A DNA stretch of 64,000 nucleotides from Escherichia coli (lineage in GTDB: Bacteria; Pseudomonadota; Gammaproteobacteria; Enterobacterales; Enterobacteriaceae): NCBI RefSeq assembly GCF_003334405.1, contig NZ_QOWM01000002.1. The stretch is one strand, 5' to 3'. Below are positions 46,697 through 50,352 of the stretch, piece after piece (position 1 is the stretch's first letter; each line of letters begins with the position of its first letter). Under the pieces are notes generated by a model, which did no database searches, was not told where the DNA came from, and saw only the letters and a program-made list of their open reading frames with translations. Made by a program: the position numbers and the translations under genes.

Positions 46697-48196
46697 ATGA
46701 GCATCTTGTACGAAGAGCGTCTTGATGGCGCTTTACCCGATGTCGACCGCACATCGGTACTGATGGCACTGCGTGAGCATGTCCCTGGACTTGAGATCCT
46801 GCATACCGATGAGGAGATCATTCCTTACGAGTGTGACGGGTTGAGCGCGTATCGCACGCGTCCATTACTGGTTGTTCTGCCTAAGCAAATGGAACAGGTG
46901 ACAGCGATTCTGGCTGTCTGCCATTGCCTGCGTGTACCGGTGGTGACCCGTGGTGCAGGCACCGGGCTTTCTGGTGGCGCGCTGCCGCTGGAAAAAGGTG
47001 TGTTGTTGGTGATGGCGCGCTTTAAAGAGATCCTCGACATTAACCCCGTTGGTCGCCGCGCGCGCGTGCAGCCAGGCGTGCGTAACCTGGCGATCTCCCA
47101 GGCCGTTGCACCGCATAATCTCTACTACGCACCGGACCCTTCCTCACAAATCGCCTGTTCCATTGGCGGCAATGTGGCTGAAAATGCCGGCGGCGTCCAC
47201 TGCCTGAAATATGGTCTGACCGTACATAACCTGCTGAAAATTGAAGTGCAAACGCTGGACGGCGAGGCACTGACGCTTGGATCGGACGCGCTGGATTCAC
47301 CTGGTTTTGACCTGCTGGCGCTGTTCACCGGATCGGAAGGTATGCTCGGCGTGACCACCGAAGTGACGGTAAAACTGCTGCCGAAGCCGCCCGTGGCGCG
47401 GGTTCTGTTAGCCAGCTTTGACTCGGTAGAAAAAGCCGGACTTGCGGTTGGTGACATCATCGCCAATGGCATTATCCCCGGCGGGCTGGAGATGATGGAT
47501 AACCTGTCGATCCGCGCGGCGGAAGATTTTATTCATGCCGGTTATCCCGTCGACGCCGAAGCGATTTTGTTATGCGAGCTGGACGGCGTGGAGTCTGACG
47601 TACAGGAAGACTGCGAGCGGGTTAACGACATCTTGTTGAAAGCGGGCGCGACTGACGTCCGTCTGGCACAGGACGAAGCAGAGCGCGTACGTTTCTGGGC
47701 CGGTCGCAAAAATGCGTTCCCGGCGGTAGGACGTATCTCCCCGGATTACTACTGCATGGATGGCACCATCCCGCGTCGCGCCCTGCCTGGCGTACTGGAA
47801 GGCATTGCCCGTTTATCGCAGCAATATGATTTACGTGTTGCCAACGTCTTTCATGCCGGAGATGGCAACATGCACCCGTTAATCCTTTTCGATGCCAACG
47901 AACCCGGTGAATTTGCCCGCGCGGAAGAGCTGGGCGGGAAGATCCTCGAACTCTGCGTTGAAGTTGGCGGCAGCATCAGTGGCGAACATGGCATCGGGCG
48001 AGAAAAAATCAATCAAATGTGCGCCCAGTTCAACAGCGATGAAATCACGACCTTCCATGCGGTCAAGGCGGCGTTTGACCCCGATGGTTTGCTGAACCCT
48101 GGGAAAAACATTCCCACGCTACACCGCTGTGCTGAATTTGGTGCCATGCATGTGCATCACGGTCATTTACCTTTCCCTGAACTGGAGCGTTTCTGA
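46697..48196 (+). CDS. glcD: Glycolate oxidase FAD-linked subunit GlcD
   Basis: 499-aa FAD-binding PCMH-type oxidase. Confidence 0.95.
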   Translation: MSILYEERLDGALPDVDRTSVLMALREHVPGLEILHTDEEIIPYECDGLSAYRTRPLLVVLPKQMEQVTAILAVCHCLRVPVVTRGAGTGLSGGALPLEKGVLLVMARFKEILDINPVGRRARVQPGVRNLAISQAVAPHNLYYAPDPSSQIACSIGGNVAENAGGVHCLKYGLTVHNLLKIEVQTLDGEALTLGSDALDSPGFDLLALFTGSEGMLGVTTEVTVKLLPKPPVARVLLASFDSVEKAGLAVGDIIANGIIPGGLEMMDNLSIRAAEDFIHAGYPVDAEAILLCELDGVESDVQEDCERVNDILLKAGATDVRLAQDEAERVRFWAGRKNAFPAVGRISPDYYCMDGTIPRRALPGVLEGIARLSQQYDLRVANVFHAGDGNMHPLILFDANEPGEFARAEELGGKILELCVEVGGSISGEHGIGREKINQMCAQFNSDEITTFHAVKAAFDPDGLLNPGKNIPTLHRCAEFGAMHVHHGHLPFPELERF

Positions 48197-49008
48197 TGCT
48201 ACGCGAGTGTGATTACAGCCAGGCGCTGCTGGAGCAGGTGAATCAGGCGATTAGCGATAAAACGCCGCTGGTGATTCAGGGCAGCAATAGCAAAGCCTTT
48301 TTAGGTCGCCCTGTCACCGGGCAAACGCTGGATGTTCGTTGTCATCGCGGCATTGTTAATTACGACCCGACCGAGCTGGTGATAACCGCGCGTGTCGGAA
48401 CGCCGCTGGTGACAATTGAAGCGGCGCTGGAAAGCGCGGGGCAAATGCTCCCCTGTGAGCCGCCGCATTATGGTGAAGAAGCCACCTGGGGCGGGATGGT
48501 CGCCTGCGGGCTGGCGGGGCCGCGTCGCCCGTGGAGCGGTTCGGTCCGCGATTTTGTCCTCGGCACGCGCATCATTACCGGCGCTGGAAAACATCTGCGT
48601 TTTGGTGGCGAAGTGATGAAAAACGTTGCCGGATACGATCTCTCACGGTTAATGGTCGGAAGCTACGGTTGTCTTGGCGTGCTCACTGAAATCTCAATGA
48701 AAGTGTTACCGCGACCGCGCGCCTCCCTGAGCCTGCGTCGGGAAATCAGCCTGCAAGAAGCCATGAGTGAAATCGCCGAGTGGCAACTCCAGCCATTACC
48801 CATTAGTGGCTTATGTTACTTCGACAATGCGTTGTGGATCCGCCTTGAGGGCGGCGAAGGATCGGTAAAAGCAGCGCGTGAACTGCTGGGTGGCGAAGAG
48901 GTTGCCGGTCAGTTCTGGCAGCAATTGCGTGAACAACAACTGCCGTTCTTCTCGTTACCAGGTACCTTATGGCGCATTTCATTACCCAGTGATGCGCCGA
49001 TGATGGAT
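48196..49008 (+). pseudogene. glcE: glcE, 3'-truncated (first ~271 codons only) at an island deletion junction
   Basis: Reads as GlcE through ...LPGTLWRISLPSDAPMMD, then continues into unrelated sequence that is antisense to an antigen 43 fragment. Intact GlcE is 350 aa. Confidence 0.8.
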
Positions 49009-50352
49009 TCCCTGGGCCACAATGTCAGCCCACAGGCCGGAGGCGTTGTGTATCAGATTCAGGTATCCGCCCAGGCTGCCGGCATCATCCCGGACCGTGC
49101 CGGCACGGGAGCCGTCATCATCCTTAACATCAACGGAAGAATGGCCAGCAGCACCATATACCCCCGCGGTCACAGACATACCGGCAACCTCTGTTCTGAG
49201 CAGGTCACCCTCCAGACGGACGAAGCCATAGCTGCCGCTGCTTTCCGGCGTGGCTCCACGGGCAATACCGCCGTTGTTATCGTGACCGAGATGACCGCCC
49301 TGAATGCTGAGACGGACGCTGTTATTTTCACCGCTTACACCGGTCTGATGGCTGCGGGAGCCTGCCAGAATCCGGTCATAGTCCATTGCCTGTGTCAGCA
49401 TGGAGGCATACAGGGGGACTTCTGCACGATAAGCATTTTCACTGCGCAGATACCAGCTCTCATCACTGTCCCGGTTGAGGGAGTAGTTAAAGGCACCGGC
49501 CTGCAGCTTATTCCCCTGGACAAAGGCCCCTTCCTCCGTGGTGGCACCGTTAATGGCTTCCACCACCTGAATACCCTTACCGCTGGTCGCCAGCCCCGAC
49601 GCACTGTTGCCGGCGTTCACCAGGTTCAGGATGGTTTTTCCGGTTGCCCTGCCACCGTCAATGACCAGTCTGTCAGCATTGTTCTGTGCCATATCCGGGC
49701 GTACACGCAGGCTGATGGTGCCATTCTGTCCGTTCAGGTTTTTCACTTTCAGGGTTGCCGGTACGAACTTCCCTGTGCGGGTGGAGGTGAAATGAATCTG
49801 TCCGGCATGGCTGAGGTCATCCACCACCGACTGCACCGTGGCGTTATCGGGAATATTCCAGGTGGCACCAGAGGCGAGAGTGACATTCGTGGGGTCAATG
49901 GCACCGTTCAGCACAGTGCTGCCGGTCAGCTTCAGGGCTGTACCGCGCTGAGCAATGACATCCGTGGTGACGGTACTGTCGTTCAGCGTCAGCGTGCCTT
50001 CATTCAGGTTGACGGCTTTCTGGGTGAGTGTGGTGTTGCTGACAGTGAGTGTGCCACTTCCTGATTTTTCCACGCTGCCGTTACCGGTGAGAGAGCCTCC
50101 CTGCAGGAGTGCATCGCCTTCACGGATGGTCAGGGTATCGTTGTTCACCGTCTTCCCGGAAAGGGTAAGTATGGCGCCGTTATTCAGCGTGGTGGTGCCC
50201 GCCAGTGTGCCGCCCCTGGCGGTGAACAGTCCGCCATTTACCGTGGTATCCGTGGCCGTATCACCGGCGTTCAGCGTGAATGAACTGCCTTTTTCCAGCA
50301 TCAGGGCATCCGCCTGACCGCCTCCGATACTGAATGCCTTTCCGTCGCTCCG
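49006..50352 (-). pseudogene. flu: Internal fragment of an antigen 43 (Flu)-type autotransporter adhesin
   Basis: Translation matches the Ag43 passenger/autochaperone region (about residues 415-860). No signal peptide, no N-terminal passenger and no C-terminal beta-barrel. A frameshift is visible near 50300-50330 (KAFSIGGGQA in a different frame). Confidence 0.85.

Follow-up and report, generated by a model that had tools for sequence, protein, structure and literature searches.

A glcE–agn43 chimeric reading frame at a probable deletion scar between the core chromosome and the pheV island of Escherichia coli

The pheV locus of Escherichia coli is hypervariable, and independent losses of the secretion system T2SS-beta have been inferred there (PMC3707838). 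The losses of T2SS-beta and sslE beside pheV that were described include an internal deletion of gspD-K in K-12 and a replacement in strain Crooks (PMC3707838). Glycolate oxidase, the other system concerned here, is an enzyme formed jointly by GlcD, GlcE and GlcF (PMC4625952). The stretch of DNA analysed in the present work, referred to below as the window, comprises 64,000 nucleotides of contig NZ_QOWM01000002.1 (E. coli assembly GCF_003334405.1). It resembles the T2SS-beta cases (PMC3707838) in that the locus is the same, core genes beside the pheV island site have likewise been lost and the E. coli host is of commensal type; in contrast to those cases, the apparent deletion reaches further in both directions, into the glc operon (glcE) on one side and into the island gene agn43 on the other. 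No literature linking pheV, glcB and a deletion was found, and a wider search returned only the T2SS-beta paper.

The left part of the glc region is in place. The gene for the activator of the operon, glcC (45682–46446, minus strand; a 254-aa gene call), is intact and divergent from glcD, and its product matches NCBIfam model NF007442 with 511 bits against a cutoff of 301. The gene glcD (46697–48196, plus strand; from the list of open reading frames) is also intact and encodes 499 aa, which match NF008408 over the full length with 1089 bits; its stop codon overlaps the start codon of glcE by 1 nt. The remnant of glcE (48196–49009, plus strand) consists of codons 1–271 and one further nucleotide, so that FAD_binding_4 is kept and the last 79 codons are missing. 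It opens a chimeric reading frame (48196–50064, plus strand) of 622 aa, in which GlcE residues 1–271 are followed by 351 codons antisense to agn43. In a protein alignment, the chimera agrees with reference GlcE (350 aa; WP_000943100.1, from strain CM2010-0578/1) at every one of residues 1–271 and departs from it at residue 272, while the glcD–glcE region of the same strain shows 100% DNA identity to window positions 47001–49009, ending at 49009. The preliminary description had cut glcE at codon 271, near position 49008, and this proved exact to the nucleotide, with the crossover at 49008–49009 and protein identity through residue 271. Its proposal that the 622-aa frame is a chimera with antisense Ag43 in the downstream part was confirmed by pairwise alignment to glcE and agn43, and the intact GlcE C-terminus that would have spoken against it was not found downstream of 49008. 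Across the 64-kb window, blastn returned no matches to the glcE 3' end, glcF, glcG, glcB, glcA or sslE; glcD is thus present without its partner glcF. The earlier claim that glcF and malate synthase G are missing therefore holds for the window, from which glcF and glcB are absent, and we infer it for the rest of the genome.

The GlcE model NF008439 matches the chimera with 443 bits, above the curated cutoff of 284, and automatic annotation would therefore name it GlcE; the match is partial, covering profile positions 2–291 of 358, and does not describe a full-length GlcE. In Pfam, FAD_binding_4 at residues 11–136 is the sole match. The possibility that the tail is a real fused domain was rejected, as Pfam finds only FAD_binding_4 and the tail is a shadow frame antisense to agn43. 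Intact agn43 already holds an antisense stop-free run of 358 codons, and the tail comes from that run. The C-terminal 351 residues cluster at 90% with 'hypothetical proteins' of 338, 354 and 257 aa that lie antisense to agn43 in other genomes, in a cluster of 80 members; such calls are errors made on shadow frames of repeat-rich autotransporter genes. The chimera shares this cluster with the other shadow frames but, unlike them, has acquired through the fusion to glcE a real start codon, a promoter and an upstream gene whose stop codon overlaps that start, and would hence be likelier to be translated than they are.

Beyond the glcE remnant lies an internal fragment of agn43 of 1,352 bp (49005–50356, minus strand), corresponding to nt 1191–2542 of the gene and to codons 397–848 of 1039. 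It differs from the agn43 of strain C3 by 1 mismatch in 1,352 (99.9% identity), which bears out the statement of the preliminary description that the opposite strand encodes Ag43 past about 49008. That description had overlooked that the Ag43 piece is only an internal fragment with a second junction, and it had taken the peptide ADIVAQG as passenger sequence; these are Ag43 residues 841–847, which lie within the Pfam Autotransporter beta-domain (765–1015). The fragment retains the final AIDA repeat and the autochaperone domain together with the first third of the beta-barrel, and lacks the signal peptide and the promoter region. Pfam assigns to it one AIDA repeat (fragment residues 1–60) and AC_1 (fragment residues 176–293), so that the passenger is represented by its last part alone. 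In intact Ag43, a self-associating autotransporter of the AIDA type (type Va), the extended signal peptide at the N-terminus (ESPR) occupies residues 6–49 and the beta-barrel (PF03797) residues 765–1015; the fragment starts at codon 397 and is without ESPR, it stops at residue 848 with an incomplete barrel, and PF03797 was not detected in it by Pfam. Its product would presumably not be secretable, because the signal peptide is missing and the barrel is only partial.

The canonical distal island module with Ag43, in the order yeeP-like GTPase, agn43, further genes, yeeS, cbeA/cbtA and yeeW, is represented by the K-12 prophage remnant CP4-44 and by the pheV island of QML220601. The agn43 of the QML220601 island is the same allele (99.9%), lies on the same strand and has the same position relative to pheV, between the glc operon and the remaining island. 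Compared with the modules of QML220601 and CP4-44, only codons 397–848 are left in the window; what has been lost comprises the region for promoter and phase variation, the signal peptide, the greater part of the passenger and two thirds of the barrel. It was also observed that QML220601 has agn43 but carries other island cargo than the window.

To the right of the fragment, the proximal part of the pheV island is retained (50352–62540), with 100% coverage and 100% identity to the pheV islands of BS74R-D and other strains. It carries a hypothetical gene with a 9-nt repeat, QatABCD, a CBASS pair (both defence systems called by PADLOC), IS remnants and an integrase. Nearest to the fragment is the VasL-domain remnant of a T6SS gene (50444–50827, plus strand; PF12486 on the gene call), whose 5' end has been removed at the second junction; the annotated form in relatives measures 525 nt, and in BS74R-D the start of the VasL coding sequence lies 49 nt left of the point that corresponds to this junction. 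At the far end, the tyrosine integrase of the island (61081–62343, minus strand; NF007246 integrase domain, E = 1e-74, and annotation in a relative) adjoins the 3' side of tRNA-Phe (GAA), that is pheV, the attachment site of the island (62541–62616, minus strand; ARAGORN, with the yqgA flank as in relatives). The core gene yqgA (62722–63429, minus strand; from the list of open reading frames and annotation in a relative) lies on the other side, an arrangement typical of islands inserted at a tRNA gene. Several phylogroup-A-like genomes carry the pheV island next to yqgA with 100% identity. A distal repeat of the tRNA 3' end (attR; last 16–22 nt) was found neither in the window nor in those relatives that keep the yghD boundary, so that its absence from the window is no sign for or against a lost distal island end. 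This setting at the boundary of the core chromosome and the pheV island, with Qat, CBASS and the integrase, had been overlooked before.

Three-way alignment with the parental sequences resolved both junctions. At junction 1 (49005–49009), glcE and agn43 share an exact microhomology of TT (49008–49009), and the match extends to 4/5 positions (GGaTT in glcE, GGgTT in agn43); the crossover was placed at TT, as 49007 matches glcE alone and 49010 matches agn43 alone. The spanning 40-mer is TGATGCGCCGATGATGGATTCCCTGGGCCACAATGTCAGC. At junction 2 (50352–50356), agn43 and the pheV island share the microhomology GGGTA, and their BLAST ranges overlap by the same 5 nt. No IS element, att site or long repeat was seen at either junction in the alignment, as the parental sequences abut directly, and the microhomology at both amounts to only 2–5 nt.

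Relative to QML220601, junction 1 corresponds to a deletion of 32,008 bp that joins position 751284 of the record to 783293. The order in that strain is glcDEFGBA-sslE-pppA-gsp-yghD, followed by the module from DUF4942 to agn43, and the genes gone in these ca. 32 kb are the glcE 3' end, glcF, glcG, glcB, glcA, sslE, pppA, the T2SS-beta gsp genes and the distal island module. The window shares the succession glcE (plus), agn43 (minus), island and pheV with QML220601, BS74R-D and other relatives, and a deletion is indicated because both flanks keep the order and orientation of intact relatives. Hence, it is considered highly probable that the scar arose by illegitimate-recombination deletions at the boundary of the core chromosome and the pheV island. 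The ancestral order would have been glcC / glcDEFGBA - sslE - pppA - gspS2, gspC-M, followed by the island genes DUF4942 - DUF957 - DUF5983 - cbtA - yeeU - yeeT - yeeS, further genes, IrmA - hypothetical - agn43, further genes, and then VasL' - hypothetical - QatABCD - CBASS - integrase - pheV. This arrangement is a composite of two kinds of relative, the genomes with the Qat island and QML220601; no complete genome was found in which the Qat island and intact agn43 occur together at pheV, and agn43 was lost in 3/3 of the Qat-island genomes inspected (BS74R-D, CM2010-0578/1 and Z1323PEC0012). Deletion 1, of about 32 kb, would have joined nt 814 of glcE to nt 2542 of agn43 at TT, and deletion 2 would have joined nt 1191 of agn43 to the T6SS-remnant (VasL) gene at GGGTA, leaving the 1,352-bp internal piece stranded between them. 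The deletions may have taken place in either order, as separate events or as one. By a 1-in-3 chance, junction 1 would have come to lie in frame with the 358-codon antisense run of agn43, and the glcE remnant would therefore continue for 351 meaningless codons to give the 622-aa frame.

Similar decay is seen in other genomes. The segment from glcF to glcB is missing in 16% of complete E. coli genomes, and the glc region is nearly always single-copy (4,546 places in 4,543 genomes). BS74R-D and Z1323PEC0012, which have the same Qat/CBASS island, carry a pitB'-yghD deletion, and CM2010-0578/1, also with this island, a DUF5983'-'sslE deletion; relatives with the same island also have a cbtA gene without its N-terminus. 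The differing deletions and the cbtA remnant together show that decay is recurrent and that the cbtA/Ag43 module was once present. These three strains are like the window in that the island is 100% identical and each has an IS-free deletion where the core meets the distal island. They differ in breakpoints and in the genes lost: the glc operon is complete in CM2010-0578/1, whereas everything from pitB to gsp is gone in BS74R-D, and the agn43 fragment, present in the window, occurs in none of them.

A single complex event has been considered, in which one break-and-repair deletion from glcE to VasL was accompanied by template switching that inserted 1,352 bp of agn43 as filler, copied either from the agn43 of the island itself or from a further copy in the genome. 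Both junctions are of one type, with 2–5 nt of microhomology, and agn43 is usually multi-copy (queries for the junction regions, which contain the agn43 half, hit a median of 2 sites per genome), which fits such an event. Against this, the fragment lies, in order as well as orientation, just as it would had it been left in place in a colinear island, two ordinary deletions suffice without any extra mechanism, and independent single deletions are common at the pheV boundary in relatives, so that filler copying appears unlikely. Even less probable is an inversion or translocation in which the segment from glcF to the agn43 3' part persists elsewhere, with malate synthase G, SslE and T2SS-beta kept. 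Only 64 kb were inspected and a copy elsewhere could exist, but nearly all genomes have a single copy of the glc region, and glcE is broken regardless. Inversion was rejected, as it would flip the orientation of a flank, whereas glcE (plus) and agn43 (minus) stand as in QML220601.

The reading that glcE, agn43 (a gene of a repeat family) and the pheV island were wrongly joined in the contig has to be weighed as well, since multi-copy agn43 is a typical break point of short-read assemblies and both junctions are absent from all of the 5,426 complete E. coli genomes searched. The exact 622-aa protein is nevertheless recorded on 7 contigs from two pipelines, on a 383-kb contig of NCBI assembly GCA_024592615.1 and in Logan assemblies including ERR4578754, and a Logan contig equals the window base for base over 11.9 kb with both junctions. 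Reads must presumably span the junctions, because overlaps of 2–5 nt are far below the k-mer length of any assembler, and the three segments are neighbours, in natural orientation, in natural pheV regions. An assembly artefact is thus extremely unlikely, and on the agreement of contigs from NCBI and Logan the chimera is regarded as real. The NCBI contig may itself be where the window comes from, in which case independent support is provided by the Logan assemblies, and the Logan samples that carry the chimera may not be independent isolates.

For the strain, the gene content suggests that glycolate oxidase is lost, through the truncation of GlcE and the absence of GlcF, and that malate synthase G, the GlcA permease, SslE and T2SS-beta are all lost as well. 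As the glcD promoter and GlcC are intact, a transcript from glcD into the glcE remnant and on, antisense, into agn43 is likely made when glycolate induces the operon; the protein that it encodes should be without function and probably unstable. After the deletion, the glycolate-inducible, GlcC-activated glcD promoter lies upstream of, and on the same strand as, the island hypothetical gene and the QatABCD operon, of which qatA lies at 52328, and a consensus scan of the plus strand from 48811 to 52400, which is blind to Rho-dependent termination, predicted no intrinsic-terminator-like site. A long glycolate-driven transcript that encodes the fusion of truncated GlcE and antisense Ag43 and reads into the QatABCD defence genes is conceivable on these grounds, though quite improbable. 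If true, phage defence or a new chimeric protein would be coupled to a metabolic signal, glycolate.

The scar is a case of real but ordinary gene loss and involves no new mechanism or system. The chimera is an annotation trap, as pipelines may label a dead frame 'glycolate oxidase subunit GlcE', and metabolic reconstructions could then wrongly credit the lineage with glycolate use. The two junction sequences, because of their absence from the complete genomes, could be used as a specific PCR or k-mer marker of the lineage. The locus gives a base-resolved example of how the boundary of core chromosome and island at pheV decays by IS-independent microhomology deletions, which would have cost one lineage the metabolic operon glc, the colonisation factor SslE with its secretion system T2SS-beta, and the adhesin Ag43.

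The chimeric ORF occupies 48196-50064 on the plus strand and encodes 622 amino acids. It was found to be identical to the 350-aa GlcE of strain CM2010-0578/1 over the first 271 residues and to diverge from residue 272, where the reference protein reads ...SDAPMMDLPGEQL and the window reads ...SDAPMMDSLGHNV; glcD-glcE of that strain and window 47001-49009 are 100% identical at the DNA level. The break at codon 271, placed near nucleotide 49008 in the preliminary description, is thus exact by protein and DNA alignment. The remainder had been read as the opposite strand of Ag43, and this was confirmed: 49005-50356 matches agn43 of strain C3 on the minus strand with 99.9% identity (1 mismatch in 1,352). 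The missing GlcE C-terminus was not recovered downstream of 49008, since the 3' end of glcE gave no blastn match in the 64-kb window; the same holds for glcF, glcG, glcB, glcA, sslE and the distal island of a relative. FAD_binding_4 (residues 11-136) is the sole Pfam domain of the chimera, which scores 443 bits against the GlcE equivalog model (cutoff 284) with profile positions 2-291 of 358 covered. It is therefore an annotation trap, passing the GlcE cutoff despite partial profile coverage.

Intact agn43 contains a 358-codon stop-free antisense run (gene nt 1483-2559; 5984-7060 in comparison locus L002). In other genomes, this frame has repeatedly been annotated by gene callers as a 'hypothetical protein', with lengths of 338, 354 or 257 aa, and the 90%-identity cluster holding the chimera comprises 80 members, antisense agn43 products that include protein records P0002-P0015. 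The ORF attains its length (271 real and 351 shadow codons) because junction 1 fell just inside the antisense run, in frame with glcE. The agn43 piece is internal, spanning codons 397-848 of 1039. According to Pfam, full-length Ag43 carries the ESPR signal peptide at residues 6-49, AIDA repeats up to residue 457, the autochaperone AC_1 at 573-690 and the Autotransporter beta-domain at 765-1015; the fragment retains one AIDA repeat and AC_1 and breaks off within the barrel. ADIVAQG (residues 841-847), earlier assigned to the passenger, is therefore barrel sequence. Such a fragment would not be exportable.

Two junctions are present, rather than the one originally pictured. At junction 1, glcE nt 814 is joined to agn43 nt 2542 at TT (49008-49009), the sole exactly shared bases; the extended match is 4/5 (GGaTT in glcE, GGgTT in agn43). 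At junction 2 (50352-50356), agn43 nt 1191 is joined to island DNA at a shared GGGTA, and the window from 50352 onward shares 100% identity with a different region, present in BS74R-D. Both junctions are free of IS ends, att sites and long repeats.

A search of 5,426 complete E. coli genomes found neither junction. Database records place the exact 622-aa product on seven contigs, from NCBI GCA_024592615.1 and from Logan assemblies including ERR4578754; the GCA_024592615.1 contig (383 kb), which may itself be the source of the window, equals it over the 17.9 kb compared, and a Logan contig does so over 11.9 kb, both junctions included. Because the overlaps are 2-5 nt, a k-mer assembly join would need spanning reads. 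An assembly artefact is, on these grounds, very unlikely.

Left of junction 1 the window carries glcC, glcD and genes further upstream, all ordinary core chromosome; many phylogroup-A-like strains have this DNA at 100% identity. The DNA right of junction 2 is the proximal part of the pheV genomic island, and the same proximal island adjoins yqgA at 100% identity in several complete genomes. In strain QML220601, the undeleted core side reads glcDEFGBA-sslE-pppA-gspS2-gspC-L-yghD, followed by the canonical distal island module of DUF4942, DUF957, DUF5983, cbtA, yeeU, yeeT, yeeS, antirestriction, DUF932, DUF905, IrmA, hypothetical, agn43 (minus strand) and GTPase genes, with agn43 of the same allele and orientation as the window fragment. 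Relative to this strain, junction 1 corresponds to a deletion of 32,008 bp (record position 751284 joined to 783293). The flanks of the lost segment keep their ancestral relative orientation, which fits a deletion and argues against an inversion. A deletion of about 32 kb at the island boundary would thus have joined glcE to agn43. The preliminary reading is supported overall, with the barrel assignment, the second junction and the boundary deletion as corrections.

The first feature right of junction 2 is a T6SS remnant with a VasL domain; it is followed by a hypothetical gene that carries a 9-nt tandem repeat, by QatABCD, and by a CBASS cyclase paired with a 2TM/SLATT effector. Remnants of IS elements and a tyrosine integrase come next, and tRNA-Phe (62541-62616, minus strand) and yqgA close the series. 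The VasL-domain fragment (50444-50827, plus strand) and an ImpA N-terminal fragment in the same island (remnant region 17107-18471 of comparison locus L003), both upstream of Qat, indicate an older, decayed T6SS cluster within the island. The hypothetical 376-aa gene (51066-52196, plus strand) has a weak PADLOC match to PD-Lambda-4_B (E = 3.7e-6) and contains a perfect repeat of 6.8 copies (52048-52108) encoding AEVAEV...; in relatives it differs in length (1419, 1293 nt) or carries a frameshift annotation, which suggests repeat-number variation. The four-gene Qat anti-phage system (52328-56887, plus strand) is complete, with full-length PADLOC matches for QatA (KAP NTPase, 52328-54112), QatB (54112-54864), QatC (QueC-like, 54846-56165) and QatD (TatD nuclease, 56162-56887). 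A CBASS-like pair lies on the minus strand (57440-59351): the effector (57440-58015) and an oligonucleotide cyclase (58023-59351) that contains SMODS and AGS_C domains.

GlcD, GlcE and GlcF jointly form glycolate dehydrogenase/oxidase (PMC4625952). As GlcE is truncated and glcF is absent from the 64-kb window, the enzyme should be inactive in this strain. In work by Pellicer et al. (1996, J Bacteriol), an insertion in any one of glcD, glcE and glcF reportedly abolished activity. Malate synthase G, GlcA, GlcG, SslE, PppA and T2SS-beta would also be lost, if the segment is truly gone from the genome. GlcC and the glcD promoter region are intact, and the glcD stop still overlaps the glcE start codon by 1 nt, which makes it plausible that glycolate induction yields a fusion transcript and some translated chimera. 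Downstream of the scar, no terminator-like site was predicted as far as 52400; transcriptional read-through toward the Qat operon is possible but speculative.

Other deletions were observed at this boundary: a pitB'-yghD junction in BS74R-D and Z1323PEC0012, with the pitB-to-gsp genes all gone, and a DUF5983'-'sslE junction in CM2010-0578/1 (comparison loci L003 1239-3222, L009 250-2233 and L004 19308-23349). These relatives share the Qat/CBASS island and boundary with the window, but their deletions are independent and have other breakpoints. All three carry a truncated cbtA and no agn43. From this and the differing deletions it follows that the island formerly contained the cbtA/agn43 module and that decay of the region is recurrent. 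The pheV locus has been described as hypervariable, with independent loss inferred for the adjacent T2SS-beta genes (PMC3707838). The glc operon is frequently lost in E. coli, glcF-glcG-glcB being absent from 883 of 5,426 complete genomes (16%; megablast with comparison locus L008 5535-9360 as query). Deletions at the pheV boundary are likewise common, and events of this type are well known, the novelty here being confined to the breakpoints.
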